A stretch of 64,000 nucleotides of DNA from Magnetococcales bacterium (GCA_015228925.1 JADGCQ010000007.1:1588-65587), one strand, 5' to 3'. Shown: positions 35,165 through 54,720, numbered from the stretch's first letter. Notes: generated from the sequence alone by a model not told the origin. Made by a program: numbers and translations.

Positions 35165-35199
35165 AAAAAAAACCGCAAACATTGTTTTGCGGTTTTTTT
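35165..35199. terminator. Rho-independent, bidirectional-type terminator hairpin flanked by A- and T-runs
   Basis: aaaaaaaaccgcaaa-cattg-ttttgcggttttttt, immediately 3' of tRNA-Glu on the minus strand. Confidence 0.6.
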
Positions 35200-35218
35200 G
35201 TCTCTTCGGACGTAATTA

Positions 35219-35294: not shown

Positions 35295-35368
35295 CGAAGA
35301 GATAAGCGGAGCATTCTGCACCAACTGCCCCGACTAGGCAAGTAACTTTGTCACTCTCCCTGCGTTAT

Positions 35369-35761: not shown

Positions 35762-35821
35762 GATACCAATGTCACCTCGGTTGAATTGATGGATGCCTGG
35801 ATTCTCTACCTTTCTCTATTC

Positions 35822-36952
35822 TTAAGTCAAGATGGTATCGACACTTAGAACGGGTTCGGTGGGATCAACCCCCAGAATATCGGTGGCAACCGCCTCCAAC
35901 CGCGCACGTCGGTGCCGATAACTTTCATCGGCCAACAATTGTCGCCAATCACCCGGTGTAACCCGATATTTATCCAACATCCGCCCAATCGTCTCGGTGC
36001 GGAACAGGGGACCACCACCATGGTGTGTTATCTCCTCCCAGGCCGCAATAACGCCCCGTTGGGCAGCCTCATTGTCCTCCATCCGGCCCGTACAAACCAG
36101 CACCAAATCACATCCCGCCACCACCGCTCGTCGGGTCCGTTCACGAATATCCCCCTCTAAAGCGGCCATCTCAATGGCGTCGGACACAACCAATCCCCGG
36201 TAACCCCACTCCCGGCGCAACAGGTCAATCAGTATTCGGGAGGACCAAGTTGCCGGATGATCCCGATCTATTTCTGTGGCTACCAGATGGGCCGTCATCA
36301 ACGCCGGTAACTCCCCGGCCAACGTCCTGAAAGGGAGCAATTCTTCACCATCCAATCGTTGTCTGCTTTTATCAACCACCGGCAGATGACGATGCGAATC
36401 CACCATAGCGGCACCGTGTCCTGGAAAATGTTTGCCCACCGCCATGCATCCGCTCTGCGCCAACCCTTGCAGCCATCCCCGCGCCAGCCGTATCACCTGC
36501 TCTGGATGGTCACCAAAAGCGCGATCACCAATGACCGGATGTGCCCCCGGTTCCCTCAGGTCGAGAACCGGGGCACAGTTAACCCCAAAGCCTAAAGAGG
36601 TCAATTCTTGACCACAGATCAAACCCCACAGATAGGCGACTGCCACTGCATCATCCGTGTCGCGTTGATCCCATCGTGCCAACGCCTCGGCGGTGGGGTA
36701 ACGGGTCAGCGGTGTCCGTAACCGCTGAACCCTTCCCCCTTCCTGATCCAACCACAAGGTTGGCGGCGGATCTGTCGTGGCGCGAATGCAACGCACCAAC
36801 GCCACGACCTCATCCAAAGTTCCGAGATTGCGCGAAAAAAGAATGACACCAGCCGGTTTATGATCCATAATCCAGGCTTGTTCGTCGGATTCTAACGTTT
36901 TTCCGGCAATTCCAATCACCAGATGTCCCGCAGGATATTTACTTTCTTTCAT
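35822..36952 (-). CDS. nagZ: Beta-N-acetylhexosaminidase (GH3)
   Basis: DQEGGRVQRL, GFGVNCAPVLD, KHFPGHG and VVSDAIEMAAL. Confidence 0.85.
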   Translation of the reverse strand: MKESKYPAGHLVIGIAGKTLESDEQAWIMDHKPAGVILFSRNLGTLDEVVALVRCIRATTDPPPTLWLDQEGGRVQRLRTPLTRYPTAEALARWDQRDTDDAVAVAYLWGLICGQELTSLGFGVNCAPVLDLREPGAHPVIGDRAFGDHPEQVIRLARGWLQGLAQSGCMAVGKHFPGHGAAMVDSHRHLPVVDKSRQRLDGEELLPFRTLAGELPALMTAHLVATEIDRDHPATWSSRILIDLLRREWGYRGLVVSDAIEMAALEGDIRERTRRAVVAGCDLVLVCTGRMEDNEAAQRGVIAAWEEITHHGGGPLFRTETIGRMLDKYRVTPGDWRQLLADESYRHRRARLEAVATDILGVDPTEPVLSVDTILT

Positions 36953-36960
36953 AACCGACC

Positions 36961-37503
36961 ATGTTTTTTCATCATCCCAATAATCAGACCAGAACGCTCT
37001 GGACCCTGGCTATGCTATCCTATTCGATCTGGATCTACTACCTCTCTTCTGGGGTTGTTGAAATTCCTTTGCCCGATTTCCCTTTCCAAGATAAAATCTT
37101 CCACACCATCGCCTATGGCATCCTTGCGTCTATTTCCTGGTTGATGTTTCGGCAATGGCCCTTTTTTGAACGCCCCTGGTTGTGGGCTTGGCTCTATACG
37201 GCAGGATACGGTATCTCTGATGAATGGCACCAATATTACGTCCCCGGTCGCTATGTAGACGCATGGGATGTTGTCGCCGATGCGTTGGGTGCCGCCTTCT
37301 TCATCTCAATTTTGGAGATCATCCGTTACCGCAATGAAACCATCAGGGATCCTGTGATTCATTTTCACTCCCAGAAGAATGTGCAACGCTTGGCTCAAAA
37401 ACTGGGGCAGATACGTCATCAAAACGGGTTACCGCAACCCGGTTATCGTGAAAAGCTGCCCCCCCATCTGGAGCCACCGAATTCGCCGCCGTCAGGCTGT
37501 TGA
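36961..37503 (+). CDS. VanZ-family membrane protein
   Basis: DKIFHTIAYGILA and SDEWHQYYVPGRYVDAWDVVADALGA. The low-complexity C-terminal tail overlaps the convergent gene. Confidence 0.7.
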   Translation: MFFHHPNNQTRTLWTLAMLSYSIWIYYLSSGVVEIPLPDFPFQDKIFHTIAYGILASISWLMFRQWPFFERPWLWAWLYTAGYGISDEWHQYYVPGRYVDAWDVVADALGAAFFISILEIIRYRNETIRDPVIHFHSQKNVQRLAQKLGQIRHQNGLPQPGYREKLPPHLEPPNSPPSGC

Positions 37504-39448
37504 GCGAAAGGCCATCGGCAAATATCGCCCCTTTCGGCAGACCATGACATAACGTCAATCCAGGTCTTACCGACTCTGTGAGCGTGGCGCACATACGCAA
37601 ACGTCCCCGTTCATTGGCGACGATCACCTCATCTCCCTCCTCAATGGCTCGTGCCCGGGCATCCTCTGGGTGAATCCATAGCCGTGGTGGTTGCCATATC
37701 CGGGTAGCCGTTGGCAAATGCGAAAACGTGGTATTCAAAGTTTCCACGCTGGGAGGAGTCATGAAATCCAGGGTGTCTGTGCGTCCTTGTTGTCCCCGAT
37801 CACGCGCATTGACCGGCCAATGGTCGGGCATGGATGGCATGGCGGGATCACTCCAGTGGGGATAAAAATGAAATCGGCCATCCTGGGTTGGAAATTGTTC
37901 TTCAAACTGGCGTTCAGATCGGGGTGGGCGACAATCCAACCAACCCGGCTTGCTCCACTCTGCCAACGGGGGATAGTTTGAAGCGGCTAACACCTGTTCG
38001 ATCCGCTCCAGACTACTCCCCGAAAACGCCGGTTCCGAAAATCCCATCGCCTGGGCCAACGCATTGACCACATCATGATTGCACCGGGCCTCCCCCCGTG
38101 GAGGTAGGCAACCCATGCCAATCTGGAGAGTATACTGGCCGTAGGATTTAAACAGGTCATCCTGTTCCAAAAAGGTTGTCGCCGGCCAGATGACATCCGC
38201 CAGTTTGGCCGTATCGGTCATCACCTGCTCATGGACCACGGTAAACAGATCTTCGCGCATCAATCCTCGGTGGACCCGATTCAGGTCGGGACAGGAAGTG
38301 GCGGGATTGGCATTAAAAACCAAAAGTCCTTTGATGGGGGGAGAGGGTGGGGCATCGCTCAGCAGTGGTCCCAGGTGGCACATATCCAGGATGCGGGATG
38401 GCCGGGTCATCAGCACCGTCTGTCGCACCGGTTCGCCTTGGATATGAAAGGCATCCCCGGTGGCAAACAAGGCTCCGCCTCCCGGTTTGTCCCAGGCTCC
38501 GGTCATGGCGGCCAAACAGGAGACCGCATGGACGTTGACGGCACCGTTGTTTTGGCGACTCATCCCCAGACCGATGCGGATGAAGGGTGCTTTGGCCTGA
38601 GCCAACCGACGGGCAAAGGTTTGGATGACGGTTCCATCGATTCCCGTGATTTCGGCGGCCCATTCCAAACTTTTTGATTGAAGATGCTCGGCCATGGTGG
38701 GGTCAAAGTCGGTCCGTCGGGCCAGATAATCGATATTTGCCAACCCCTCACGCAGCATCACCCCCATCATAGCCACTGCCAATGCCCCGTCCGTACCTGG
38801 ACGCGGTTGCACATGGTCATGAGCCATGCGGGCGGTTCGGCTGACATAGGGGTCTACCACCACCAACCGTCCCCCTTTTTTTGTGGCTTTTTTCACATGA
38901 CCCATGAGCGTGACATGGGTTACCACCGCATCCATTCCCCATAGGACCACCAAATCGCTCTCTGCCACATCCGCCGGATCCGGTCCTATCGCCCGACCGA
39001 CGCCAGCCCGCCAACCAGCAAAACCGATGGGATAACAAATTGTCCCCAACATGCGGGAAAATCCGGCGCGATGGGTCAACCGATCCACCGCCCCACGCTG
39101 CACCAACCCCATGGTCCCGCCATAATAAAACGGCCATATCGCTTCGGGGGTATGACGGTCCATGATTCCTTGGAATTGTTCCGCCACTCGGTGTAAACTC
39201 TCTTCCCAACCTACCCGGCGGAATTGCCCCGAACCTTTGGGACCGCTACGCACCATGGGAAACAAAATCCGTTCACCTTCCTGAAGATCACGATAGCGGG
39301 CGACTTTGCCGCAAATCACCCCTTGGGTGAATGGGTGGTCTCGACGACCGCGAATGGTTTTGATCTTCTCTTGCTCTACCGCCACCTCCAGGGCACAGGC
39401 ACCGGGGCAATCGAGAGGGCAAACCAGATGATGGTGACGTTCGGTCAT
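37343..39448 (-). CDS. Molybdopterin-dependent oxidoreductase (MopB superfamily, 4Fe-4S N-terminal motif)
   Basis: CPLDCPGACALEV cluster motif. 701 aa with MopB-type blocks (VVLWGMDAVVTH, LLVFNANPATSCPD) and a C-terminal molybdopterin-dinucleotide-binding-like part (IHPEDARARAIEEGDEVIVANERG). Confidence 0.85.
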   Translation of the reverse strand: MTERHHHLVCPLDCPGACALEVAVEQEKIKTIRGRRDHPFTQGVICGKVARYRDLQEGERILFPMVRSGPKGSGQFRRVGWEESLHRVAEQFQGIMDRHTPEAIWPFYYGGTMGLVQRGAVDRLTHRAGFSRMLGTICYPIGFAGWRAGVGRAIGPDPADVAESDLVVLWGMDAVVTHVTLMGHVKKATKKGGRLVVVDPYVSRTARMAHDHVQPRPGTDGALAVAMMGVMLREGLANIDYLARRTDFDPTMAEHLQSKSLEWAAEITGIDGTVIQTFARRLAQAKAPFIRIGLGMSRQNNGAVNVHAVSCLAAMTGAWDKPGGGALFATGDAFHIQGEPVRQTVLMTRPSRILDMCHLGPLLSDAPPSPPIKGLLVFNANPATSCPDLNRVHRGLMREDLFTVVHEQVMTDTAKLADVIWPATTFLEQDDLFKSYGQYTLQIGMGCLPPRGEARCNHDVVNALAQAMGFSEPAFSGSSLERIEQVLAASNYPPLAEWSKPGWLDCRPPRSERQFEEQFPTQDGRFHFYPHWSDPAMPSMPDHWPVNARDRGQQGRTDTLDFMTPPSVETLNTTFSHLPTATRIWQPPRLWIHPEDARARAIEEGDEVIVANERGRLRMCATLTESVRPGLTLCHGLPKGAIFADGLSLNSLTAANSVAPDGGAAFHDNRVAVTRFDDVSAPVFEPSVAHSSGSENESQDP

Positions 39449-39491
39449 GGTTGTCCTTTGCCAAAAAGGAAAATTGGGTGATCATTGCGTC

Positions 39492-40115
39492 ATGAAAAAT
39501 GAGACCATTGTGGCATTATTCACCGCTCTGAGGAAAGACAATCCCAACCCCAAGGGCGAATTATACTCCGAAACCCCCTTCCAACATTTGGTGGCGGTCG
39601 TGTTGTCGGCGCAATCTACCGATGCGGGCGTCAATCGTGTCACACCAGCATTGTTTGCCGCCGCCCCCACCGCTTATGACATGGTGCAACTGGGAGAGGA
39701 AGGGATCCGGGATCATATCCGCTCCCTGGGGCTTTTTAATTCCAAGGCTAGACATCTTTTTGCCCTGAGTCACATACTGAACGAGCGTTATCGGGGAGAG
39801 GTTCCCGATGATCGGGCTATTTTGGAATCGTTGCCGGGGGTCGGACGAAAAACCGCCAATGTGGTGTTGAATGTCTGTTTTGGCCATCCAACCTTGGCGG
39901 TGGATACCCATGTATTTCGTTTGGCCCGGCGCACGGGTTTGGCTCAGGGAAAAACACCGGAGGCGGTTGAAAAAATCTTGTTACAAAAAATTCCCCAGGA
40001 ATTTTTGAGACATGCCCATCATTGGCTTATTTTGCATGGTCGCCGTGTCTGCGCCGCTAGAAAACCGGCTTGTCACCACTGCCTGATTGCACCATGGTGC
40101 GAAAAACATTTATAA
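39492..40115 (+). CDS. nth: Endonuclease III
   Basis: HhH-GPD block LPGVGRKTANVVLN, catalytic VDTHVFR, and the C-terminal Fe-S motif CAARKPACHHCLIAPWC. The ATG at 39492 (MKNETIVALF) is preferred over the tracked 39447. Confidence 0.9.
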   Translation: MKNETIVALFTALRKDNPNPKGELYSETPFQHLVAVVLSAQSTDAGVNRVTPALFAAAPTAYDMVQLGEEGIRDHIRSLGLFNSKARHLFALSHILNERYRGEVPDDRAILESLPGVGRKTANVVLNVCFGHPTLAVDTHVFRLARRTGLAQGKTPEAVEKILLQKIPQEFLRHAHHWLILHGRRVCAARKPACHHCLIAPWCEKHL

Positions 40116-40300
40116 GTTCGGAGCTAAACCCATACCATTTCGAGATTCGTAGTTTCTCCACATCGGGATCCAGGGAATTTTTTACCCACAGCCGATCTGC
40201 AAGCTCGAAAGGAGTATAATGGACCCCACTTTCAACCTTCAGCATGTCACACCTTAATATTAAGGAAAGTTACATGCCTATCATGCCTCATTTGCAATCA

Positions 40301-40334
40301 AAAAAACTACGTATTTCGTGATGGTTGCGGTTTA
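40301..40334 (+). repeat. 34-bp direct repeat, copy A
   Basis: aaaaaactacgtatttcgtgatggttgcggttta, 32/34 identical to copy B at 43233-43266. Confidence 0.65.
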
Positions 40335-40372
40335 AGTGCCATTGGGGTCTCGATCACTGAATCGGAAGCACC

Positions 40373-42562
40373 TCAAAAGGACGGATCCGGGGTACGCCCA
40401 GGCCGATAGGGAGGCCAGTATTCCAGAACGATCCTGTGCTTTCCCGCAGCCGAGAGGGCAACCCCCTGGTGGATATGGTAGAGGGGGATGATCCGCGATT
40501 CTCGTCCGTTGATCCATACCCGCCAGGAAGGGTCGTAATTGACCGCCAAAGCCAGCATGGCCGGTCCATCAACCTCAACATTCACCACCAGACGATCCGG
40601 CCTGGAGGGTTCAAGGTGAACTTCCCCGTGGCGATAGTCCGGCTGGAAACGCGCCAGATCCCCCGTTTCCCCCCGCTCCACAAAGGCCGTCCTCCGGAGA
40701 TCCTCCACGCTGGCCTCGGCCAATGCCTGCAACAGGGTTTCGGTATCGGCATATGCCTGTACATTGTTCAGCAAGCGCACACGCGGCAAAACAGTGGTGT
40801 TTTCGTATAGGTAGACGGCCTGTGGCGGAAACTCCCCCTTCAAGGCGGACAAAACCATTTGCCGTCGTCGAAGCATCTCCCAGGCCGCCCGCTTTCGCGT
40901 CTCCTCCACAGGGGTATGCAACAATTGGAGATCCTCATGCACGAGGGGAGAATGGCTGTAGATGTAGCGCACATTCATGAGGGAGAGGAGATCAAGGTCG
41001 TACCAGCAGGCAAAATCCACCGCCTCGTTCTGTCTGAACCCACCTGGAGGCGCAAAAAGATACTGCAATTTATAGGTGTTGGCAGCCAGATCCGGATACT
41101 GGGCAACTACGCCGTGAATCACCTTCTTCCAGAAGTGAAAGAGCCGCCCAGAATACATGCGGTAGTAGCCATCGGCACTTTCCAGGCCATAGGCGAAGGC
41201 GTAGGCGGGATAGAGCCTCTGCCCGGAAATGGCCGTTACTCGGGGGGGCTCCGCGCCCGCCATGGCCACCCGGAATGGTTCCTCCCGTGGCAGTGCCGCC
41301 AGACCCTTGAGAACCGGATCGCTGAAATTGATTGCAAAATTATCCGTAGGCATGCGCCGGGCCAATAGAACGGTTGTTCTCTCCCAGAAATAAAGTGGCC
41401 AGGCCAGAGTCGCTAGGCTCAATCCCGCCAGCACTATCCGCCCCCATGACCGTACTGAAAGGAACTCCGAGCGCTGGATCAGGTGCAGACCGGCGGCACC
41501 AAGAAGAACTCCAGAGAATGTTGAAAACTGGTAATAATCGTGAAGGTTACCTTTGGCCGAGGGAAAAACATCCCTGGCAAGCAGTTGCAGCCACAGAAAA
41601 AACTCTCCCACGGTGGCACACAGAACAAAAAGCCAGAGCAGCCGCCATGCCGGTCCTTCCGACCGTGGATTCAAGGCCAGTCCCAGGGCGGCAAGCAATA
41701 GATAGATCTTGTTGTCGGGCAAGATTCGCTCAAGCACCGTCACATTGAAACTGTGCCAGACCTGTTCAAACACGGAGGCATCCATCCCTCCGGCCAACGC
41801 CATCCGGGAACTGGCGGAAACGTGGCTCATGAGGGCTACGGCGGAAGGCATGGAGGCCAGAACCGCACCCAGCAAAAAGGGCAGCCAGACCGACAGCCAG
41901 TGTCGGAGAGGCTGTCGGCTGACCAACACGAACCAAACCGGCAGTGCCGTCACCAGAAAAACCGTATAGAGGGCGGTCTCAGCCACCAGCGACAGGCCCA
42001 TCCCCACAAGCACCGCCGGAAACATCCTCTGCCATCCGGTTTTTTTCAGGAGCCTCTCCAACATCCAGATGAACATGGCCGTACAGGGCGGACCCAAGCC
42101 ATCGTAGAGGGTCCAGTCCCGTACCGACCAAGCATTTAGGGAAAAGGCGAGACCAGCAAAGAGTGCTGCGAAGGTGTTGAGGCGCAGGAAATCACAACAA
42201 AGGCGAAAGGTGAAATAGGCCGCAAGAAAACGTTGAAGAAACATGGTGATGCCGTAGGCAGCCCATGGCGGCAGTGCTACCCATGGCAATCCGTTGATCA
42301 AAAAGCTGTCGATCATGGGGAAGGGCATGGTCGGCATGCCGCCGCTGAAGAGCGGCTGCCACCAAGTCACACCGTATTCCAGAAGATCCCGCGCCGCCGA
42401 CATGAGGTAGGGAACGCTGACATCCGCCGTATCCTGAATACGCAAATAGGAGTGGGGCCCCAAAATCCAATAGACGGCGGAATTGAGCAGCGACCAGATG
42501 AACCACAACAGCAGCCATTGGCTCGGCCCCAGAGACTCAAATGAAAAGGATATCCGTTTCAT
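40373..42562 (-). CDS. Large polytopic membrane protein, YfhO/DUF6044-like (putative glycosyl/lipid-linked transferase)
   Basis: 729 aa. At least 10 hydrophobic segments in the first ~420 aa, followed by a soluble C-terminal domain. Family assignment is from general resemblance only. Confidence 0.5.
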   Translation of the reverse strand: MKRISFSFESLGPSQWLLLWFIWSLLNSAVYWILGPHSYLRIQDTADVSVPYLMSAARDLLEYGVTWWQPLFSGGMPTMPFPMIDSFLINGLPWVALPPWAAYGITMFLQRFLAAYFTFRLCCDFLRLNTFAALFAGLAFSLNAWSVRDWTLYDGLGPPCTAMFIWMLERLLKKTGWQRMFPAVLVGMGLSLVAETALYTVFLVTALPVWFVLVSRQPLRHWLSVWLPFLLGAVLASMPSAVALMSHVSASSRMALAGGMDASVFEQVWHSFNVTVLERILPDNKIYLLLAALGLALNPRSEGPAWRLLWLFVLCATVGEFFLWLQLLARDVFPSAKGNLHDYYQFSTFSGVLLGAAGLHLIQRSEFLSVRSWGRIVLAGLSLATLAWPLYFWERTTVLLARRMPTDNFAINFSDPVLKGLAALPREEPFRVAMAGAEPPRVTAISGQRLYPAYAFAYGLESADGYYRMYSGRLFHFWKKVIHGVVAQYPDLAANTYKLQYLFAPPGGFRQNEAVDFACWYDLDLLSLMNVRYIYSHSPLVHEDLQLLHTPVEETRKRAAWEMLRRRQMVLSALKGEFPPQAVYLYENTTVLPRVRLLNNVQAYADTETLLQALAEASVEDLRRTAFVERGETGDLARFQPDYRHGEVHLEPSRPDRLVVNVEVDGPAMLALAVNYDPSWRVWINGRESRIIPLYHIHQGVALSAAGKHRIVLEYWPPYRPGRTPDPSF

Positions 42563-47311: not shown

Positions 47312-47330
47312 TTTGGACCTTGCGTATTCA

Positions 47331-48134
47331 ATGATCAGGAATAAAAAAATGGGACGTATGGATTGGGTACGGATTGATTCTATCATTGTGGCTTTGTTGA
47401 TTGGTATCATTGTGCCGCGCTTCGGAGAGGCGATAGAACTCAACATTTTATTTAGTGCCTATACGCCACCCTACGTTTTTCAAGATAAAAATGAGAAAGG
47501 TGATGGCATTGTGGTGGAGATTGTCCGCGAGTCCCTGGACGGACAGGGATATAAGATCCATCCTGTTTATCTCCCGATTGGCCGAAGTTTTAAAATGTTT
47601 TCGGAAGAACAGGTTGATGGGACGACGATTATTCAGGAAAGTTCGGGATTGGATGCCAATTATTCCGATTATTTTATGCAATACCATAATTTTGCAATTA
47701 CCCGGACGGACAGAAACATCGCAATCCATAGTATGGAAGATCTTCTTGGAAAAGATATCATCGCATTCCAACAGGCGGACAAATATTTGGGGCCAAAATT
47801 TGGTGTGATCGCTGTGGGTAATCCACGGTACTCCGAGATGGACAACCAGGAACGGCAGGTTCATATGCTTTTGGCGGGGCGCACGGATATTGCCATTATG
47901 GATGAGAGCATTTTTCGGTATTACTGTCAAAAACTGGTTCGTGAGGGGAAGGTATCCCAGGAGCCAAAGGTCACGTTCCACAATATTTTTCCTCCGACGA
48001 AATATCGTGCAGCCTTTGTCGATCCGAAGGTCAGAGACGCTTTCAATGTTGGATTGGCGATGCTACGTGCGAATGGACGCTATAGGGCAATCTATGATAA
48101 ATATACCCGCCTTTATTTTGATATCAAGGAATAA
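47331..48134 (+). CDS. Periplasmic solute-binding protein, family 3-like (associated with the downstream kinase)
   Basis: N-terminal hydrophobic anchor, then YTPPYVFQD...IVVEIVRESL...FQQADKYLG...MLLAGRTDIAIMDE, typical of amino-acid-type SBPs. The tracked start at 47313 is TTG; ATGs are at 47331 and 47349. Confidence 0.7.
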   Translation: MIRNKKMGRMDWVRIDSIIVALLIGIIVPRFGEAIELNILFSAYTPPYVFQDKNEKGDGIVVEIVRESLDGQGYKIHPVYLPIGRSFKMFSEEQVDGTTIIQESSGLDANYSDYFMQYHNFAITRTDRNIAIHSMEDLLGKDIIAFQQADKYLGPKFGVIAVGNPRYSEMDNQERQVHMLLAGRTDIAIMDESIFRYYCQKLVREGKVSQEPKVTFHNIFPPTKYRAAFVDPKVRDAFNVGLAMLRANGRYRAIYDKYTRLYFDIKE

Positions 48135-48139
48135 CCTGA

Positions 48140-50500
48140 ATGAATGATCCTGTTGGCAGGTCGCTTTCCGTCAAGCTCCTCCGCACGGTGTTTGCTATTT
48201 ATTTTATGATTACTTTGTTGGTAACCGCGCTCCATGTGATTATTGAATATCAGAAAACCAAGGATGATATTTTACGAGAATTGGCAGAGGTTGCACATGC
48301 GTTTTCACAATCCTTGGAGGTAGCTCTCTGGCAGATCAATCCAGAGCAGCAGCGTTCGATTGCCACTGGAATTTTAAATTTATCGATTGTGACAGGGCTG
48401 GAAATTTCGCAAACGGATGGTCAGATATCGCGTATGGGAGAAGCGGAATTTTCTCCGAATTCGGAAACGGTGTTTTTTCACCCGTTTTCCATTAACCATG
48501 ATTTTAATGGAAAAAAAACGCACCTTGCGGATGTTCGATTTTACAGCGACCAGTCGGTCGTGATTAGCCGTGTGAAAACGGGATTCATCATGATCTTGTT
48601 GAATGCGGTCATTAAGTGTCTGGCATTGTGGTTTCTCTTTTTATGGGCATTTCGCCGCCTTTTGAACCGGCCATTGTCCGATTTTGTGTCGCAGATGCTC
48701 AAAATCAATATAAATAATATTGGCAATCAAAGAATTCATCTCGGTATTGGGGAAGACAATGAGTTACGACGTATGGAAGGTTCTTTTAATACCATGCTGG
48801 ATACCATTGAGGAGGGACGTGCTAATCTGGTTGCTTTACAGGCCGGAACACAAAAATATTTGGAAGAGACCGTGGAAGAACGGACTCAAAGTCTTGAAGT
48901 TGAAGTGGCGTTTAGAAAACGGATGGGAGAAGATTTGAGGAACAGCCAAAACCTCCTTTTGGCTATTTTGGAATCGACGAGGGATGCCGTATTGGCGGTT
49001 CATGGAGACGGCGGTATCAGTCATTATAACAATCGATTTTTGGAATTGTGGAAAATCCCAAAAGAGGCCATGAAACCCCCATGCCGGGATAAAATTTTAT
49101 TAGAGATGGTTTGTGATCAACTGCAAGATCCGCAACAGTTTTTGTCCAAGATTCGGGAATTATATGATTCTGTGGAAGAAAGTTTGGATGTGCTACATTT
49201 TAAGGATGGTCGTGTTTTTGAAAGATTTTCGCTTCCACTCAGCCATGACGATGGCAATAACGGGCGCGTATGGTGTTTTAGTGATGTCACCGAACGCAAG
49301 CGTTTTGAGGAAAGTTTGAGCCAGGCCAAGCGGGAAGCGGAGGGGGCCAACCAAGCGAAGAGCGAATTTTTGTCGGTGATGTCGCATGAGATTCGTACAC
49401 CGATGAATGCCATTCTGGGGATGGGTGAGCTTCTGAAAGAGACCCAACTGACCGAAACACAGGGTTTATACGTCAAATTATTGAATCATTCTGGCGAGGC
49501 ACTGCTATCTTTAATTAATGATATTCTTGACTTATCCAAGATTGAGTCCGGCCAGCTCAGGCTGGAAAAAGTAACTTTTGATTTATGGCAAATGGTTCAT
49601 GGGGTGATGGATGTGTTTCAGTTTACCGCCATGGATATGGGCGTGATGCTCCGCCATCACATCGGCGCAGATGTTGTGCAATGGGTGGAAGGGGATCCGA
49701 TTCGCATTCGACAGATTCTCATGAATTTGGTGAGTAATGCCATCAAATTTGCCAGCAAAGGGGAGGTTTTTGTCCATGTGACGCACGGTCCCAATCCTAT
49801 GATTTCTATGGCGGTGCAGGATAATGGCCCCGGTATTCCATTGGAAAAGCAGGAAGAAGTGTTCAAGCCGTTTACACAGGCCGATTCAAGCACCACACGC
49901 AAGCATGGTGGCACGGGGTTGGGTTTGACGATTTGTAGACGATTAGCCGATCTCATGGGGGGGCAGATTGATTTGGAGAGTGTCCCTGGCCAGGGTTGTA
50001 CGTTTACCGTGATGATTCCGCTGCCCGCCGTCGAAATACGTCGTGATACCCAGGGCACTGGTGATGCAGACCATGCGGAAGATATCTTGGGTGGGCAACA
50101 GGGTGCGTTGGTGAAACAGGGTTATGAGATACTCCTTGTGGAAGATACCCCAGAAAATCGGATTGTTGTGGAATCTTTTCTCCGTTCTGTCACCAAGCGG
50201 TTGGTACAGGCGGAAAATGGGGCTGAAGCGGTAAAGATTTTCAGGAAGGATCGGTTTGATCTTGTATTAATGGATATTGAGATGCCGGTGATGGATGGTT
50301 ACCAAGCCATACAGGAGATCCGTGCATGGGAGCTGGAGGGGGATAGGCATCCAACCCCCATTATCGCTTTGACCGCGCACGCCTTGTCTGAGGAGTCCAA
50401 AAAAATCCAATCCGCCGGGTTTGATTTTCATTTGACCAAACCGATTCGGAAACAAAAATTGTTGGATACCATTCGTCACGTAACCCACGAAAACAGATAA
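48140..50500 (+). CDS. Hybrid sensor histidine kinase (2 TM - HAMP - PAS - HisKA - HATPase - REC)
   Basis: [18 protein letters not shown] (H-box), NLVSNAIKF, DNGPGIP, GTGLGLTICRRLADLMGG, and REC ILLVEDTPENR...DLVLMDIEMPVMDG...LTKP. Confidence 0.9.
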   Translation: MNDPVGRSLSVKLLRTVFAIYFMITLLVTALHVIIEYQKTKDDILRELAEVAHAFSQSLEVALWQINPEQQRSIATGILNLSIVTGLEISQTDGQISRMGEAEFSPNSETVFFHPFSINHDFNGKKTHLADVRFYSDQSVVISRVKTGFIMILLNAVIKCLALWFLFLWAFRRLLNRPLSDFVSQMLKININNIGNQRIHLGIGEDNELRRMEGSFNTMLDTIEEGRANLVALQAGTQKYLEETVEERTQSLEVEVAFRKRMGEDLRNSQNLLLAILESTRDAVLAVHGDGGISHYNNRFLELWKIPKEAMKPPCRDKILLEMVCDQLQDPQQFLSKIRELYDSVEESLDVLHFKDGRVFERFSLPLSHDDGNNGRVWCFSDVTERKRFEESLSQAKREAEGANQAKSEFLSVMSHEIRTPMNAILGMGELLKETQLTETQGLYVKLLNHSGEALLSLINDILDLSKIESGQLRLEKVTFDLWQMVHGVMDVFQFTAMDMGVMLRHHIGADVVQWVEGDPIRIRQILMNLVSNAIKFASKGEVFVHVTHGPNPMISMAVQDNGPGIPLEKQEEVFKPFTQADSSTTRKHGGTGLGLTICRRLADLMGGQIDLESVPGQGCTFTVMIPLPAVEIRRDTQGTGDADHAEDILGGQQGALVKQGYEILLVEDTPENRIVVESFLRSVTKRLVQAENGAEAVKIFRKDRFDLVLMDIEMPVMDGYQAIQEIRAWELEGDRHPTPIIALTAHALSEESKKIQSAGFDFHLTKPIRKQKLLDTIRHVTHENR

Positions 50501-50581
50501 TTGTCGGGCATCCCGATAAATGATGATTCTCAGTGATTGTGCGGGGATATGTCAGATTTTGGTAATATCGATTGATTCCTG

Positions 50582-50610
50582 TTGTCAGTATAGTGATTTT
50601 GGTGTAGATT
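50582..50610 (+). promoter_or_regulatory. Possible sigma-70-type promoter for the cyclase/TIR module
   Basis: TTGTCA - 17 nt - TAGATT, about 85 nt upstream of the cyclase start. Pattern match only. Confidence 0.25.
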
Positions 50611-50695
50611 TTGCGGACGGATGTAGTCGGCAGCCGTTGATGGGGGTAGACACCATTGCCAAGATTTTTCCTTTCCGCCATAAAGAGATGTGATC

Positions 50696-52138
50696 ATGAA
50701 TGGATACATCGTATTTTCAGACCTTAAAGGCTTCTCGAAACTGAATGAGTTTCAACTCCGCCTGTATTATCAGAAGTTTCTCCCCGCATTGTCCGCCAAA
50801 GTAGAGCCATGGCTTGAAAAAGCCAAGGTTTTCAATACCTGGGGGGACGGTTTGGTCGCCATCTTTGAGGATGGTGTCAGCACGGTAAATTATTTGATTA
50901 ATTATCAGGAATTTATGTTAATGTTTGACTTTGTTGGCCATGGAATACCACGTTTGGTTCCCAGAATTGGTGCCCACTTTGGGGATCTTGATTATTACGA
51001 TGATCCGTTGATCCATCGTACCAACGCCGTAGGCTTGCATATTCATACCGCTGCTCGGATCGAACCCATCACCCGCCCAGGAGAAATTTTTGTTACCGAA
51101 CCTTTCAAAGACGCCATAGAACAATTACCTGTGGCACCTGGGGGGATTGGTTTTGATTCTTTGGGACAATTTCCCCTGGCCAAAGGTTTTGGCAGGATGG
51201 ATCTCTACCGTTTGCGAAAAGCCAATGAAAAATCACTCGATATTGATCGGATTCTCACACAAAACATTGCCAATGATCTTCCCGAACCTGAGAAAATGAG
51301 TTTGGATGAGGAGCATTATTTGGCACGTTTCAAGAAAGCCCCCAACGTGGCAACATTCGCCGAATGGGTCGATCAGCAACGACAAGGTATTGCTCAAAAT
51401 TTTTCTGGAGAATATTTGTTGGAGGTTGGCCAACTGTGCCTTAATTTTGGTTGCTATGCGACAGCTTTGGAATTGATTGACAAACTGGAGTCTTGGCAGC
51501 TTCCGGCCAGTGGTGCGTTGCTCTACCCTTATCGAACCGATGCCAGGTTGTTGAAGTTAAAGGCTAATTGCCTCACAAGAGTTGGCAGATACAATGATGC
51601 GGCTAACATTGTTTATGGTTTGTGGCAGAGGTATCCTGGTGATTCAGATATTTTGTCCATGCTGGCCGGTCAGTATAAACGGCACGCCTTGTTTGGGGAT
51701 GGTCATGCCACCGATGGATCAGAGACCATTGACCCGGGTAAAATCAACGGTGAACTTCTTACCCGTGCGCGTGACTTGTATATTGAGGCATTTCGTCGTG
51801 ATATGGGGAGTTATTATGCCGCCATCAACGTGGCCTATCTTTATCGGATACTCCGGGGGTTTCAGGAAGGGCGCGGGATCAAACTTGCCCAACACATCAT
51901 TGGTACATGGGAGAAACAAAAGGGGGAAAATTGGTGGGTTGCCTGTACCCTCGCCGAGGCGGAGGTGATCCAAAATGACTATGAAAAAGCTTCGGAGCGA
52001 CTTCGTTATGCGGTGATGACCCATCATCCTACGGTTTTTGAGTTGGATGCCACGAGAACCCAATTGCGTATCTATGGGCAATTGATTGGTGCGGTGCGAG
52101 AGATCGAAACTGTCATTGAATCATCCTGTAAGGTTTAA
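50696..52138 (+). CDS. Minimal class III nucleotidyl-cyclase-like domain fused to a C-terminal TPR-like (DUF4071/MAP3K-TRAF-binding-like) domain
   Basis: The N-terminal ~175 aa carry the cyclase-homology blocks YIVFSDLKGFS and NTWGDGLVAIF (the two metal-Asp contexts), plus RIGAHFGDL, GLHIHTAARIE and GEIFVTE. The C-terminal ~270 aa are helical repeats with SYYAAINVAYLY and ENWWVACTLAEAEV blocks, which I associate from memory with DUF4071-type domains. Start is GTG 50690 or ATG 50696. Confidence 0.7.
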   Translation: MNGYIVFSDLKGFSKLNEFQLRLYYQKFLPALSAKVEPWLEKAKVFNTWGDGLVAIFEDGVSTVNYLINYQEFMLMFDFVGHGIPRLVPRIGAHFGDLDYYDDPLIHRTNAVGLHIHTAARIEPITRPGEIFVTEPFKDAIEQLPVAPGGIGFDSLGQFPLAKGFGRMDLYRLRKANEKSLDIDRILTQNIANDLPEPEKMSLDEEHYLARFKKAPNVATFAEWVDQQRQGIAQNFSGEYLLEVGQLCLNFGCYATALELIDKLESWQLPASGALLYPYRTDARLLKLKANCLTRVGRYNDAANIVYGLWQRYPGDSDILSMLAGQYKRHALFGDGHATDGSETIDPGKINGELLTRARDLYIEAFRRDMGSYYAAINVAYLYRILRGFQEGRGIKLAQHIIGTWEKQKGENWWVACTLAEAEVIQNDYEKASERLRYAVMTHHPTVFELDATRTQLRIYGQLIGAVREIETVIESSCKV

Positions 52139-52207
52139 GTGTCTTATTGTATGAATGCCGATACTGGCTGACAAATATCTCCATTTCCGATAGGGAAAGA
52201 ACAAAGC

Positions 52208-53542
52208 GTGGAAGAAACGATTCAATGTTTACCGGGTGAAATGGTGCAGATCATAAAATCTGACCCGGATGTGGTCGATTTTCCCCCTGCGCTTGTTATT
52301 CTTGAGGACAATGCCCTTGTCAGCATATTTGAACTGCTTCCTGGTAAAACAATAATTGGTCGGAGTGATAGCTGCGCCATTATGATATTATGTGCCCAAG
52401 CCTCCAGAAACCATTGTCTTCTGACTGTTTCGGAAGACTTGGATCGTGTGGTGGTTGAAGACCTTTCATCCAAAAATGGGACGTGGCTCAACTTGGTTCG
52501 CATTCAGCGTCCAGAAGCCCTTCAGCAAGGTGACACTTTGCATGTCGGAACTGTGGCCATGCGGTTTTTGCCCAAGAATGATCCCGATCATGTCCTCTAT
52601 CAACAACTTTCAAAATTTCATAAATTGGACCCCTCTACGGCATGTATTGGTAGGACTTTGTTTAACGATCTGGTGGAAAAGCAGATTAGGATCGCGGCTC
52701 GTAACGGTACTGGGTTTGCAATTTTGTACCTCCAGATGGAGCATATCGATTGCGTCGTTACAGGTCGGGATATTAATGTTCGTGAAACAATCATGAAGAC
52801 GGCTATCTACATGATTCGTAATTCTGGATTGCGGGATGGGGATGCTGTCTTTCGCTACAGCCCCAATGCTTTCGCAATACTGATTCCCAAAATAGACACC
52901 GCTTTGGCCGAAAGAATTTGCCAGAGATATGCAGATATTATTCGGAGTCACGAATTTAATTATGGTGATCGAGTTTCATCGGGAGTTATCTCTACGGCAT
53001 TCGCCAACTATTCTTATGAACATGCCAATGCCGAACGTGAAGCGCACAAAGATGTTTTCTTAAGTTATTCTCGTGAGGATATAGATTCTGTAAGTGCTTT
53101 ACTAAACACCTTGGACGATATTTGCGTATCTCTTTGGGTTGACCGTTTGGACATGAAAGGGGGGGATATTTTTGCGGGTCGAATCGCCCAGGCGATCAAT
53201 CATTGCAAGGTTGTCATCGTCGCCTTGACACCCAATGCGGTAAAATCCCAGTATGTCTATAAAGAACTCGCCTTGGCTGTGGACACGGATAAGCCCATTA
53301 TTCCCATACGGTTTGGGAAATTTCCGTTGTCGGATAACTTTAGACTTCTTCTGGCGGGTATTCATGAAATACATATGGTCCAGGATGATCCTGGTGTCTA
53401 TGATCACCTTATCCGGCGACTGAAAGAATTGGGTGTTGCTACTCTCGACGCAGAAGCCATTGCCAAAGAGCGAGACCAATTGATCGAGCAATTGCATGGA
53501 GCCATAGAAAACTGTACGACGGTTGGTTTCGGCAAGGGCTGA
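52208..53542 (+). CDS. FHA - degenerate GGDEF-fold - TIR three-domain protein
   Basis: FHA: IIGRSDSCAIMI...SRNHCLL...SKNGTWLN...GDTLHVGTVAMRF (nt ~52340-52568). GGDEF-fold region with LQMEHID and RYSPNAFAILIP in place of the DxDxFK and GGDEF signatures (nt ~52625-53017). TIR: KDVFLSYSREDIDS...LWVDRLDMKGGD...VVIVALTPNAVKSQYVYKELALA...PIIPIRF (nt ~53048-53392). Start is GTG 52208 or ATG 52241. Confidence 0.75.
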   Translation: MEETIQCLPGEMVQIIKSDPDVVDFPPALVILEDNALVSIFELLPGKTIIGRSDSCAIMILCAQASRNHCLLTVSEDLDRVVVEDLSSKNGTWLNLVRIQRPEALQQGDTLHVGTVAMRFLPKNDPDHVLYQQLSKFHKLDPSTACIGRTLFNDLVEKQIRIAARNGTGFAILYLQMEHIDCVVTGRDINVRETIMKTAIYMIRNSGLRDGDAVFRYSPNAFAILIPKIDTALAERICQRYADIIRSHEFNYGDRVSSGVISTAFANYSYEHANAEREAHKDVFLSYSREDIDSVSALLNTLDDICVSLWVDRLDMKGGDIFAGRIAQAINHCKVVIVALTPNAVKSQYVYKELALAVDTDKPIIPIRFGKFPLSDNFRLLLAGIHEIHMVQDDPGVYDHLIRRLKELGVATLDAEAIAKERDQLIEQLHGAIENCTTVGFGKG

Positions 53543-53580
53543 CGCGACTTTTTTCGCAGGGGGGCTTCATAGACCCGAAT

Positions 53581-54720
53581 CTATAGACCCGAATCACCCA
53601 TATTTTTACTACAATAGACTTCGGAATCAGTTGTTGGTAGCCCCCCTTGAGGGGGGAGGGAGTAGCTCGTCATGACCTTGGGGATGGGACAGGTGATCCC
53701 CGCACGACGACACACTTGGGCCAAATGGGGGTGATAGTGGGGTATGCGGAGTACGGCGATCCCCTTCTTGAGCGCAAGGTCTGATGCATATCCCAATAAA
53801 GGCAAAAGATTTTTATCATCCGGTGAATCGGCCCATACATCGAGTGCCAGATAGCTTTCCCCATCGGGCCAGTGATGGGTGGGCTGTTTCGTGAATAAAC
53901 CAAACGCAACCAGTTCGCCATTTTTTTGATGAACCAACAGATCGCAGGGGAGGCGATTGGGATTCTTCTGAAGATACCACTTCAGATCCAAAGATCCGCG
54001 CACATTGGTCCATGGAAAGCGTTTGTGGGTGCGCTGCCATAGCCGGTCGAATTCTGGTCCGATGATTGTAGTTTGGAATAATTCTCCTTGATTCTCGGAA
54101 ATTTTCTTAAAATATTGTTGTTGGCGAACATATTGGATCAAGGATAAAATGACTTGCATCCATGGTGTTCTGGATTGAACGTTGGGCCACCAGTTGACAT
54201 GGATTCGGGCAATATCCTTGATGCGTTGCCAAACCGAACCGCCGGCACGGGGACGGATGATGACGCTTTCTGTGGTAACTCCGTGGGAAAAATGGGTGAA
54301 GGGGACACGGTTTAACAGAGCCTCCACATCTTTGGTCGGTGTCGTATTCAGCAGGGGGTACCCTTGGGCGTATTCCATGAGGGCCAGAAATAGTTTCATG
54401 CTGTGTTGGCGCAGTGCCGTGTGTACACGCCAGCAGGACATGTTGGCGGCGACTCTTTCTTCGGAGTTCCATACGATCCGTGATGGAATCAAGGCAAACA
54501 TGCCACCTATTTTTCCATCGGCTTCCAGCAGACACCCCCTGGGGAAATCGGGGGAAAAGGCGTGGTTTTCTTCCCACCAGAAATCAAATCGTTGCTGCCA
54601 AAACGACACCGGACGGGTTTCGTCTGGGAAATGGGCGCAAAACTCCGCGAGTGCAGGGATATCCGCAGCGGTGATAGACCGTAATAAAACCTGTTTGTCG
54701 GCTATGTTCACTTGCGCCAC
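53581..54720 (-). CDS. Hypothetical protein, possibly a GNAT-like acyltransferase fold
   Basis: 379-aa ORF. N-terminal LRSITAADIPALAEF...LLEADGKIGGMFALIP resembles a GNAT beta-strand pattern. No firm motif. Confidence 0.4.
   Translation of the reverse strand: MAQVNIADKQVLLRSITAADIPALAEFCAHFPDETRPVSFWQQRFDFWWEENHAFSPDFPRGCLLEADGKIGGMFALIPSRIVWNSEERVAANMSCWRVHTALRQHSMKLFLALMEYAQGYPLLNTTPTKDVEALLNRVPFTHFSHGVTTESVIIRPRAGGSVWQRIKDIARIHVNWWPNVQSRTPWMQVILSLIQYVRQQQYFKKISENQGELFQTTIIGPEFDRLWQRTHKRFPWTNVRGSLDLKWYLQKNPNRLPCDLLVHQKNGELVAFGLFTKQPTHHWPDGESYLALDVWADSPDDKNLLPLLGYASDLALKKGIAVLRIPHYHPHLAQVCRRAGITCPIPKVMTSYSLPPQGGLPTTDSEVYCSKNMGDSGL

Follow-up and report, generated by a model that had tools for sequence, protein, structure and literature searches.

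A Candidate Thoeris-Like Gene Pair with a TPR-S Cyclase and a TIR Protein in a Magnetococcales Bacterium

Two adjacent genes of a Magnetococcales bacterium on balance probably encode a Thoeris-like TIR signaling system, most likely directed against phages, in which a TIR protein would make the signal, a TPR-S domain would receive it, and a class III cyclase would provide the output. The genes lie within positions 50582–53542 of the window, the 64,000-nt stretch of DNA that was analyzed; all features described below are on its plus strand unless stated otherwise. The initial annotation had proposed a nucleotide-signaling TIR defense module, and the locus still looks like one. It had also proposed that information flows from the cyclase through a signal to a degenerate GGDEF domain and then to TIR. 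This order was not borne out, as the partners of such cyclases are often bare TIR proteins and the TPR-S domain is shared with a type VIII–like effector. Judged from the sequences, the direction is probably the reverse, with the TIR protein upstream and the cyclase downstream.

Organization of the Locus

Gene 1 (50696–52138) begins with ATG and encodes a class III cyclase domain followed by TPR-S in 480 amino acids. A GTG at 50690 is an alternative start, and depending on the start used, the product has 480–482 amino acids and the gap 5′ of the gene measures 189–195 nt. The upstream intergenic region (50501–50695) contains a sigma-70–like site, TTGTCA-17-TAGATT, at 50582–50610, which is a putative promoter solely by its match to the consensus. 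Position 50582, which had been taken as the start of the module, corresponds to this promoter-like hexamer; no ORF begins there. Gene 2 (52208–53542) encodes FHA, degenerate GGDEF, and TIR domains in 444 amino acids, and its GTG start is kept in all three alleles. The spacer between the genes (52139–52207) has no terminator-like site, and the two genes are probably co-transcribed. The convergent gene described 3′ of the pair is present as an ORF on the minus strand (53581–54720). The view of the two co-oriented genes, 69 nt apart, as a unit held up as well.

Low G+C had been offered as a sign of accessory DNA, and this stood in part. The module has a G+C content of 45.8%, whereas the window averages 50.9%; this puts the module at the 6.5th percentile among equal-sized windows, and the contrast is clearer in GC3 (0.44–0.47 in the module versus 0.55–0.58 in pgi and the downstream genes). 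However, pgi as a whole gene has 51.1% and not 58–63% as had been stated, and the SBP and kinase genes adjoining the module are as low as the module itself (44–46%).

The Cyclase–TPR-S Protein

The cyclase homology domain of gene 1 (amino acids 1–178; 50696–51229) was delimited by Foldseek, the alignment with Rv1900c/1ybt, and family conservation. A Pfam search of gene 1 gave no direct match to Guanylate_cyc, but the cyclase assignment was otherwise upheld by phmmer against the PDB (3mr7, E=0.0016; Rv1900c/1ybt also matched), by PF00211 matches in homologs, and by structure. The AF2 model (pLDDT 91.4) retrieved the class III cyclase domains 6sir, 3r5g, and 1ybt in Foldseek (E~1e-8, TMt 0.75–0.83). 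Gene 1 has the cyclase homology fold, the two metal-binding Asp residues, and the transition-state Arg of class III enzymes. Both metal-Asp contexts had been recognized correctly: Asp9 (50720–50722) in FSDLKGFS is kept by at least 90% of the 30 homologs compared, and Asp51 (50846–50848) in NTWGDG is invariant across them. Arg121 (51056–51058) is invariant in the family.

Other active-site positions are unusual. Asn47 (50834–50836) occupies the Lys position and Asn110 (51023–51025) the Asp position, and 90% or more of the family has Asn at each. The Asn-to-His change read in GLHIHTAAR is real; His117 (51044–51046, within GLHIHTAARIE) occupies the position of the catalytic Asn and also occurs in both of the closest alleles and in a single further homolog, while most of the family has Asn. 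Gene 1 thus has neither the catalytic Asn nor a canonical Lys/Asp (adenylyl) or Glu/Cys-type (guanylyl) base-selecting pair, and since Asn stands at both canonical base-selecting positions, the substrate is not predictable. Rv1900c of Mycobacterium tuberculosis (1ybt/1ybu) is one of the top matches in both sequence and fold, and when it is aligned with gene 1, both have Asn in place of the substrate Lys and His in place of the catalytic Asn. Rv1900c differs in retaining Asp as the second base-selecting residue (Asn110 in the family of gene 1), in having an alpha/beta-hydrolase partner domain and no TPR-S, and in having no TIR neighbor. Sinha et al. reportedly showed in 2005 that the Asn and His at these two positions are dispensable for Rv1900c activity, so an inactive enzyme need not follow from His117.

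The TPR-like C-terminus that had been noted is an all-helical TPR-S domain (amino acids 203–480; 51302–52135, from Pfam and the AF2 helices), with a PF20308 match at 51467–51841 that exceeds the gathering score (E=5.6e-13). Searching with a profile built from this domain retrieved 337 proteins, and PF20308 was found in 81 of the 82 that were tested. Among these 82 proteins, TPR-S was fused to cyclase (13), TIR (12), RyR (8), trypsin (3), caspase (2), or patatin (1) domains, and 29 also matched MAP3K_TRAF_bd. TPR-S is a portable module joined to effector-type domains. Its conserved core is polar and aromatic (KR, YY-x-IN, W, and E), a composition that suggests a ligand pocket. The same domain links gene 1 to Thoeris-type effectors. 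For example, the E. coli plasmid pKMi029_2 encodes a ThsI-like protein of 402 amino acids with TPR-S (PF20308, E=1.5e-17), which also matches sequences retrieved by the gene 1 profile (e.g., P0238, E=9e-24), and the adjoining ThsB is 56% identical to a validated Yersinia type VIII TIR.

The FHA–GGDEF–TIR Protein

All three domains proposed for gene 2 were recovered. The FHA domain (amino acids 48–114; 52349–52549; Pfam E=8e-17) has a complete phosphothreonine-binding signature as read from the translation, namely Gly51-Arg52, Ser66-Arg-Asn-His69, and Asn90-Gly-Thr92. The GGDEF-fold domain (amino acids 140–260; 52625–52987; Pfam E=2.8e-6, with alignments to 3ign and 6hbz) is catalytically dead. 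Alignment to the diguanylate cyclase 3ign confirmed the replaced signatures, with LQMEHID (52730–52750) in place of DxDxFK and SPNAF (52859–52873) in place of GGDEF (GGEEF in 3ign), and the loss of the active site was also seen against P0004, a homolog with an intact FHA-GGDEF. Gene 2 retains the diguanylate cyclase fold and is missing GG[DE]EF and the metal-binding Asp. An RxxD I-site–like motif, RDGD (52832–52843), is retained and could allow gene 2 to take a nucleotide as input. The TIR domain (amino acids 283–393; 53054–53386; TIR_2 E=4e-20; AbTIR 8g83 E=4e-5) carries the conserved Glu where it had been placed, as Glu353 (53264–53266), aligned with ThsB and other TIRs. It is of the TIR_2 type and not the ThsB type: its ThsB_TIR match is sub-threshold (20.6 bits against a cut-off of 21.2), and by BLAST at E≤0.01 it matches none of the type VIII reference TIR domains.

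The FHA + GGDEF + TIR architecture occurs three times among 5.8 billion protein clusters, and the FHA and degenerate GGDEF front end is limited to the Magnetococcus lineage, with three sequences. Amino acids 26–263 of gene 2 align across both domains of Bdellovibrio DgcB (6hbz), an FHA-GGDEF diguanylate cyclase, from which gene 2 differs by its destroyed GGDEF active site and by the appended TIR domain. The FHA domain of DgcB senses a phosphopeptide (PMC6733907). As the gene 2 front end resembles a DgcB-type phospho-sensing module, it more likely feeds into TIR than receives the product of the cyclase.

Homologous Loci and Accessory Character

Homologs of the two genes had been expected to neighbor each other in unrelated genomes, and they do. 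Among 24 full-length cyclase–TPR-S loci from a one-genome-per-species collection, 22 had flanks sufficient to judge, and 14 of these 22 had a TIR gene within the examined flank, lying 2–6 kb off in one locus (L004) and adjacent in the others. The 14 loci come from many phyla, namely from Cohnella, Sulfurimonas, Pseudomonadales, seven Syntrophomonadaceae, Magnetococcales, Leptospirales, Melioribacteraceae, and Bacillus; the pairing was also found in Magnetococcus marinus MC-1 and in a metagenome contig. About one-third of the homolog loci have no TIR gene, and these form separate deep clades. Defense islands around homologs had been suggested as a check, and neighbors of homolog loci do include GmrSD, mad3/mad5, PbeA, STAND NTPases, and the R subunit of a type I restriction system (E=0), but there is no such island around the module within the window.

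Comparison with Magnetococcus sp. THC-1 separated the module from its surroundings. The flanking genes are 98–100% identical, while identity drops to 76% for gene 1 and 86% for gene 2. The divergent patch (50750–53550) has 65–95% nucleotide identity against 98–100% in the flanks, and its limits coincide with the two genes; the upstream region (50501–50695) is 93–94% identical to THC-1 and thus lies outside it. Inside the patch, dS is 0.32–0.54 compared to 0.02–0.09 in the flanking genes, approximately 10-fold higher, and near-identical flanks together with this dS indicate allele replacement confined to the two genes. The dN/dS within the module is 0.20–0.25, which shows that both genes are functional. 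These sequence comparisons support an accessory module that is exchanged as a unit.

The same wiring might instead serve a housekeeping role, in which a Ser/Thr kinase phospho-signal would reach TIR, then the cyclase, and then the cell's own cNMP or c-di-GMP network. We regard this as unlikely. The module's neighbors in the window are two-component and c-di-GMP signaling genes, and those flanking it encode a hybrid histidine kinase, a PilZ-GAF hybrid kinase, and a response regulator with HD-GYP, which would suit such a network; GAF domains can bind cNMPs. Synteny of the locus in two relatives and the absence of mobile-element genes beside the module point the same way. However, a third relative has the module directly after pgi and without the kinase, the THC-1 comparison implies allele replacement, and homolog loci adjoin restriction, MADS, GmrSD, and STAND genes.

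Direction of Signaling and Proposed Mechanism

The TIR domain is the only constant feature among the partners of cyclase–TPR-S genes, which is the pattern expected for a variable sensor and not for a cNMP-activated effector. Some partners are bare ThsB-type proteins of 135–166 amino acids (L002, L003, L011, and MC-1) and are therefore too small for an added cyclic-nucleotide sensor; others are fusions to beta-helix, TPR, FGE-sulfatase, NACHT, or kinase domains. For some gene 1 homologs, the partner ThsB proteins are 42–57% identical to validated type VIII TIR domains, for which Table S1 of 10.64898/2025.12.03.692087 supplied the reference sequences. Sulfurimonas ThsB shares 57% identity with the TIR domain of a validated Pseudomonas type VIII Thoeris, and a ThsB-type (PF08937) TIR close to the validated cADPR producers is present at L003, L011, and MC-1. 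As the gene 2 TIR is of the TIR_2 type and 25–32% identical to the other partner TIRs, the type VIII result extends to it indirectly. Furthermore, genes for RyR-domain proteins, which bind or cleave cADPR-isomer signals (PMC13232231), lie between the cyclase–TPR-S and TIR genes in five Syntrophomonadaceae loci and in the B. cereus cluster, and RyR domains are fused to distant cyclases. A gene for PycTM, a Pycsar-type membrane effector, was found in Bacillus homolog loci only, including the B. cereus cluster, and this nearby effector makes it probable that, in B. cereus at least, the cyclase product serves as a signal.

In the favored reading, gene 2 would be both sensor and signal maker. Its DgcB-like FHA and dead GGDEF domains would answer a phosphothreonine cue, possibly with nucleotide input at the retained RxxD site, and the cue would drive assembly of the protein and bring its TIR domains together. 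Using Glu353 for catalysis, the assembled TIR would convert NAD+ into an ADP-ribose–derived messenger of the cADPR type. Gene 1 would be the responder, in which the C-terminal TPR-S binds the messenger and releases the N-terminal cyclase. The freed cyclase would produce a cyclic mononucleotide, either draining the NTP pool or providing a second-tier signal to receptors encoded elsewhere; the two-gene operon encodes no cNMP receptor. At the B. cereus homolog locus, the candidate receiver is the PycTM in the same gene cluster.

The opposite order, as in Pycsar and Pucsar, would have the gene 1 TPR sense infection, the cyclase product bind the degenerate GGDEF domain, and TIR deplete NAD+. Cyclase-to-TIR signaling is known in both systems (10.64898/2026.08.12.744502), gene 2 has a nucleotide-binding fold with RxxD kept, and the PycTM near the B. 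cereus homolog makes a signaling role of the cyclase product probable there. This order is nevertheless improbable. Pycsar and Pucsar TIR effectors have a cyclic-nucleotide-binding domain that gene 2 and all partner TIRs do not, many partners consist of a bare TIR domain, and one shares 57% identity with a TIR that has been shown to sense infection and produce cADPR. The ligand of RxxD sites, c-di-GMP, is not made by class III cyclases, and FHA plus GGDEF is present in three sequences only, compared to the widespread cyclase–TPR-S/TIR pairing. No PADLOC 2023 model matched gene 1, and no Pycsar model did so at E≤1.

It is very improbable that TPR-S binds the TIR protein or a phosphopeptide in a physical complex whose contact regulates one or both enzymes with no diffusible ADPR signal: TPR domains are classical protein-binding scaffolds, the name of the related MAP3K_TRAF_bd family matched by TPR-S proteins reflects protein binding, and the two genes diverge jointly, but external cADPR suffices for toxicity in type VIII Thoeris, RyR-domain proteins in the loci indicate ADPR-type ligands, and the partner TIRs span two TIR families with very different extra domains, a diversity across which a shared small ligand is easier to maintain than a shared protein interface.

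Comparison with Known Systems

The favored TIR-first wiring places the module nearest to Thoeris. The general features found here are a TIR with the conserved catalytic Glu (Glu353) and an adjacent effector with a signal-receiving domain (TPR-S), with the pairing conserved across genomes. Indirect pointers to a role against phages are the defense genes near homolog loci and the module's own signature of allele replacement. In type VIII Thoeris, described by Yirmiya et al. (bioRxiv 10.64898/2025.12.03.692087), the ThsB TIR is paired with ThsI, which has a CMP hydrolase and TPR. Upon infection, the TIR makes canonical cADPR and the TPR-bearing effector responds; the ThsI TPR was proposed as the cADPR receptor, and external cADPR alone sets off toxicity (10.64898/2025.12.03.692087). 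The module is likewise a two-gene operon of a TIR gene and an effector gene with C-terminal Pfam TPR-S. It differs in three respects. First, gene 1 has a class III cyclase as its enzymatic head and not a CMP hydrolase or nucleoside deoxyribosyltransferase-like domain. Second, its TIR protein belongs to the TIR_2 type and has FHA and dead GGDEF domains in addition. Third, the predicted output is a cyclic nucleotide and not direct nucleotide hydrolysis. No cyclase effector was found in the accessible parts of the text and tables of 10.64898/2025.12.03.692087. "Immune clade 1" cNMP cyclases have been computationally predicted among immune-associated architectures with TPR and TIR (10.64898/2026.08.12.744502).

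Compared to Pycsar and Pucsar, the module shares a class III-type cyclase beside a TIR protein, and PycTM occurs in the B. cereus homolog cluster. Those systems pair a cyclase with CNBD-TIR or 3TM PycTM effectors. Domain searches found neither a cyclic-nucleotide-binding domain (Pfam) nor PycTM in gene 2 or in the neighboring ORF (53581–54720), in agreement with the initial annotation that this is not canonical Pycsar. Pycsar-clade cyclases are standalone or AGS-C–fused, unlike the TPR-S–bearing gene 1, and the signal direction is likely opposite.

The idea of a TPR-S sensor is older. Burroughs and Aravind are said to have predicted TIR/TPR-S conflict systems in 2020 (J Bacteriol), with the TPR scaffold recognizing NAD+-derived signals. 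That prediction, which was computational only, resembles the module in the PF20308 sensor family and in the idea of reading a TIR product. The module had been called undescribed, and this holds for part of it. The logic of a TIR with a TPR-S effector is already known from the 2020 prediction, and its validation, with another effector, followed in 2025. In the accessible literature, no description was found of a cyclase as the output or of the phospho-sensing front end of TIR, and an FHA + dead-GGDEF + TIR protein is nowhere mentioned. A more tentative extension, which we consider possible and no more than that, is a two-tier relay in which an ADPR-type signal from TIR would activate the TPR-S cyclase, whose cyclic mononucleotide would in turn act on Pycsar-type or unlinked effectors, with the TIR gated by phosphothreonine in the Magnetococcus lineage. 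Such a relay, if true, would be the first link of Thoeris-type with Pycsar-type signaling.

Layout and exchange of the two-gene unit

Gene 1 (50696–52138, forward strand, 480 aa) begins with an ATG, with an in-frame GTG at 50690, and is followed after a spacer of 69 nt by gene 2 (52208–53542, forward strand, 444 aa), which begins with a GTG. About 190 nt without coding precede gene 1, a convergent ORF (53581–54720) closes the unit downstream, and a search for a terminator-like site between the two genes found none. The co-oriented pair and its convergent neighbor are present as the initial annotation had given them, except that its start coordinate, 50582, marks a promoter-like hexamer instead of an ORF start. 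No cNMP receptor is encoded in the two-gene operon.

The convergent ORF (reverse strand) encodes 379 aa without a Pfam family and is 93–98% conserved in both relatives. Its counterpart in the near-identical relative Magnetococcus sp. THC-1 is annotated as two genes (74 and 280 aa); tblastn aligns all 379 aa. Elsewhere in the window, a single 1346-aa ORF (7378–11418, reverse strand), with no Pfam family at E ≤ 0.001, occupies the stretch of lowest G+C (40–41% at 8–10 kb). The sign of the GC skew flips at about 35–36 kb (region 35001–41000), near the only tRNA gene of the window (tRNA-Glu, 35219–35294, reverse strand); the likely cause is a change in gene orientation.

Amino acid identity between the window and THC-1 is 99.8% for pgi, 98.5% for the SBP, 99.1% for the hybrid kinase, 98.2% for the 379-aa ORF, 99.5% for the PilZ-GAF kinase, and 100% for the HD-GYP regulator, compared to 76% for gene 1 and 86% for gene 2. 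Synonymous divergence is 0.32–0.54 in the module and 0.02–0.09 in the flanks, and the divergent patch (about 50750–53550) comprises exactly the two genes. The dN/dS of the module genes (0.20–0.25) shows that both are functional, and the patch reads as an allele replacement rather than decay. In a third allele (L041), the SBP and kinase genes are missing and pgi immediately precedes the module. In the window these two genes, for a periplasmic-binding protein (43.9% G+C) and a hybrid histidine kinase (46.1% G+C), fill the interval between pgi and the module (47313–50500); they are shared with THC-1 and absent in L041, an indel beside the module.

The low G+C content that had been taken to fit accessory DNA is real for the module (45.8% against a window mean of 50.9%, at the 6.5th percentile); the contrasting value of 58–63% for pgi does not hold, the whole gene being 51%. 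As proof of horizontal origin, low G+C was downgraded, since G+C is just as low in the adjacent SBP and kinase genes. The bounded allele patch is better evidence of an exchanged accessory cassette, and a swap so sharply bounded between near-identical Magnetococcus genomes provides a clean natural example of a defense-like cassette replaced in place. Signalling genes rather than defense genes surround the module in the window; set beside the exchanged patch, a housekeeping role of the pair is unlikely.

Gene 1 as a class III cyclase with a TPR-S domain

Pfam called TPR-S (PF20308, "Tetratricopeptide Repeats-Sensor") in gene 1 (E=5.6e-13) and made no direct cyclase call. The TPR-S domain (aa ~200–480) contains a QYKR motif with a conserved Lys-Arg pair. 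The cyclase assignment is borne out by matches to structures of class III cyclases that are weak but specific in sequence (3mr7, E=0.0016; Rv1900c, 1ybt), by PF00211 matches in many homologs, and by a confident AF2 model (pLDDT 91.4), which Foldseek matched to class III cyclase domains (E~1e-8, TM 0.75–0.83).

Among 30 gene 1 homologs, Asp51 and Arg121 never vary, and at least 90% keep Asp9. The replacement of the catalytic Asn by His, suspected by eye in the initial annotation, is real (His117); it occurs in the window, two close alleles, and one other homolog, with Asn in most family members, and is lineage-specific. Rv1900c, when aligned to gene 1, shares both the Asn in place of the substrate Lys and the His in place of the catalytic Asn. 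Rv1900c was reportedly found by Sinha et al. in 2005 to be active as a cyclase, with those residues dispensable, and His117 is therefore no argument for an inactive gene 1. The substrate is not predictable because both base-selecting positions, Asn47 and Asn110, are Asn, as in at least 90% of the family.

Gene 2 as a rare FHA, degenerate GGDEF, and TIR protein

The three domains proposed for gene 2 were recovered by Pfam (FHA, E=8e-17; GGDEF, E=2.8e-6; TIR_2, E=4e-20). All parts of the FHA signature are present (GR, SRNH, NGT). In the second domain, alignment confirmed that the GGDEF motif is replaced by SPNAF and the metal-binding DxDxFK by LQMEHID; an RxxD motif (RDGD, beginning with Arg209) is retained at the I-site position, which would allow a nucleotide input. 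The conserved TIR glutamate is also kept, Glu353 being in line with that of ThsB, the TIR protein of Thoeris, and of other TIRs. Residues 26–263 align with PDB 6hbz over both FHA and GGDEF domains; 6hbz belongs to Bdellovibrio DgcB, in which the FHA domain recognizes a phosphopeptide from the protein's own N-terminal tail (PMC6733907). Judged from its domains, the FHA and dead-GGDEF front end suggests that a bacterial TIR can take protein phosphorylation as a cue of infection or stress.

This architecture is very rare: a search of 5.8 billion protein clusters yielded only three full-length members, all from Magnetococcus, namely the window protein and two relatives, one 90% and the other 86% identical. 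For gene 2, an AF2 model built from 5 sequences was poor (pLDDT 54). In contrast, the family of gene 1, cyclase-TPR-S proteins of ~470 aa, is widespread, with members in Bacillota, Campylobacterota, Magnetococcales, Leptospirales, Bacteroidota relatives, and others.

TIR genes beside cyclase-TPR-S genes

A scan of one genome per species yielded 24 full-length cyclase-TPR-S loci, whose neighbors were called from crude ORF maps and then by BLAST, Pfam, and two home-built TIR HMMs. The initial annotation had proposed a search for conserved neighbors, and a TIR gene lies in the fetched flank at 14 of the 22 loci that had sufficient flanking sequence for a call. Cohnella (L002) has a ThsB-type TIR upstream and an overlapping TIR_2 protein downstream, with a type I restriction R subunit just ahead; in Sulfurimonas (L003), a 135-aa ThsB lies 4 nt downstream, followed by GmrSD. 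Seven Syntrophomonadaceae loci (L005–L008, L010, L012, L014) encode a TIR-beta-helix protein, and in five of them (L005, L006, L008, L010, L014) a ~94-aa ORF for a small RyR-domain protein stands between the cyclase-TPR-S and TIR genes (e.g., L006 4388–4672). The remaining partners are a convergent TIR-TPR protein in Magnetococcales (L009), a 140-aa ThsB in Leptospirales (L011), a TIR-TPR protein with a second TIR in Melioribacteraceae (L013), two TIR-FGE-sulfatase proteins 2–6 kb upstream on the opposite strand in Pseudomonadales (L004), and a TIR in Bacillus sp. N9 (L024).

Two further loci came from single-homolog look-ups. In M. marinus MC-1, ThsB adjoins Mmc1_3119: a 61-aa ThsB-like fragment (L037 5819–6004), probably the remnant of an operonic ThsB, overlaps the start of this gene, and about 850 nt upstream the other strand encodes an intact 138-aa ThsB. 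A metagenome contig (L038 1–5800, reverse strand) carries TIR-NACHT-FGE-sulfatase and TIR-kinase-FGE-sulfatase genes; both are divergent from a His117-type cyclase-TPR-S homolog, and the fusion of TIR with a protein kinase is noteworthy given the FHA domain of gene 2.

Loci without a recognizable TIR form separate deep clades in a neighbor-joining (NJ) tree, and some carry DUF4062-NACHT or nSTAND proteins instead. The Bacillus cereus cluster (L019 9467–16244) encodes, in order, cyclase-TPR-S, a 358-aa unknown protein, the Pycsar-type membrane effector PycTM, RyR (11222–11512), and DUF4062-NACHT-WD40. This gene set recurs in Bacillus sp. N9, where the cyclase-TPR-S and 358-aa genes are fragmented and probably pseudogenes. 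In a Spirochaetia locus (L022 7986–10293), the cyclase-TPR-S gene is interrupted into 364-aa and 121-aa parts about 850 nt apart with two small ORFs between, possibly by an insertion. At the closest homolog outside Magnetococcus sp. (L001/L035), the contig stops directly after the cyclase gene, and the 492-aa protein upstream has no Pfam or TIR-HMM match.

TPR-S as a candidate receiver of TIR signals

A word-index search with the TPR-S region alone returned only 4 matches and was replaced by a full HMMER search with a small profile, which found 337 proteins among 1.84 billion representatives. PF20308 was present in 81 of 82 tested TPR-S proteins outside the gene 1 family; these 82 include fusions to cyclase (13), TIR (12), RyR (8), HTH (4), trypsin (3), caspase (2), and patatin (1), a pattern that would be expected of a portable receiver joined to outputs. 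Neither the TPR-S proteins nor the small ThsB partners received a name from NCBIfam, and in TPR-S proteins of 380–415 aa the N-terminal ~130 aa found no assignment when profiles were searched against the PDB.

[quoted passage not shown] The E. coli plasmid pKMi029_2 encodes a ThsB that shares 56% identity with the validated TIR of Yersinia and adjoins a 402-aa "TRAFs-binding domain" protein that carries PF20308 (E=1.5e-17) and also matches proteins from the gene 1 TPR-S profile search. In comparisons of the gene 1 family with this ThsI-like protein and with a 781-aa protein at L011, hhalign was uninformative, and links by Pfam and BLAST took its place. The plasmid, an IncP conjugative one, groups the ThsI-like gene with two ThsB genes and a DUF4231/SLATT gene (L039 2776–5972), the combined type VII and VIII arrangement of the Thoeris preprint (10.64898/2025.12.03.692087). 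Of 25 listed plasmid matches, the best 21 each show 56% identity with the query TIR domain, which suggests that this cassette is present on many plasmids of Enterobacterales.

RyR-domain proteins bind or cleave cADPR-isomer signals (PMC13232231). Their occurrence in these loci, and a distant 864-aa cyclase fused to RyR with a 1035-aa TIR neighbor (L026 6468–9062), fit ADPR-type messengers, which the host-encoded RyR proteins may buffer or sense.

Direction of signalling

In the initial annotation, the cyclase product was to be sensed by the degenerate GGDEF domain and to release TIR activity. The RxxD motif of gene 2 leaves room for such an input, but the TIR domain is the sole constant of the partner proteins across loci, and several partners consist of a TIR alone, too short to accommodate a receiver; this direction is therefore quite unlikely. 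The extra domains of the other partners are highly variable, as is usual for sensors. The TIR of gene 2, of TIR_2 type, is only 25–32% identical to the other partner TIRs. A purely physical complex of the two proteins is improbable.

Signalling probably runs from TIR through TPR-S to the cyclase, as argued by the TIR domain as the only constant of the partners, the 57% match to type VIII, the shared PF20308, the portable-receiver fusions of TPR-S, and the RyR proteins in the loci. In a simple NJ tree without support values, TPR-S domains partnered with ThsB-type TIRs group together, a weak hint that receiver and TIR type co-segregate. The cyclase might then deplete an NTP, signal to unlinked receptors, or feed PycTM as in Bacillus.

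If this direction is correct, Thoeris-type immunity can end in second-messenger synthesis instead of a killing enzyme, and a relay or amplification would connect TIR-derived ADPR signals and cyclase-derived cNMPs, which have hitherto been studied apart. Production of cNMPs would also offer a second, enzymatically easy read-out for TPR-S ligands, of use for the validated type VIII system too.

Comparison with known systems

A reading of gene 1 as a Pycsar cyclase was set aside as unlikely, in agreement with the first assessment that the pair is not canonical Pycsar: PADLOC 2023 has no model matching gene 1, its architecture differs, and its partners lack a CNBD. With neither a CNBD nor a 3TM protein, the pair also lies outside Pycsar and Pucsar by effector. 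An association of TIR with TPR-S was reportedly predicted by Burroughs and Aravind in 2020. A figure legend of a 2026 preprint names immune-associated cNMP cyclases with TPR and TIR (10.64898/2026.08.12.744502). The literature searched gave no experimental description of a TIR system with cyclase output and none of an FHA, dead-GGDEF, and TIR protein; in these two respects the claim of an undescribed system stands, whereas the Thoeris-type logic is known. It is Thoeris, with type VIII nearest, whose logic the gene pair matches, and the effector domain sets the pair apart from type VIII, since gene 1 is a cyclase and not a CMP hydrolase.
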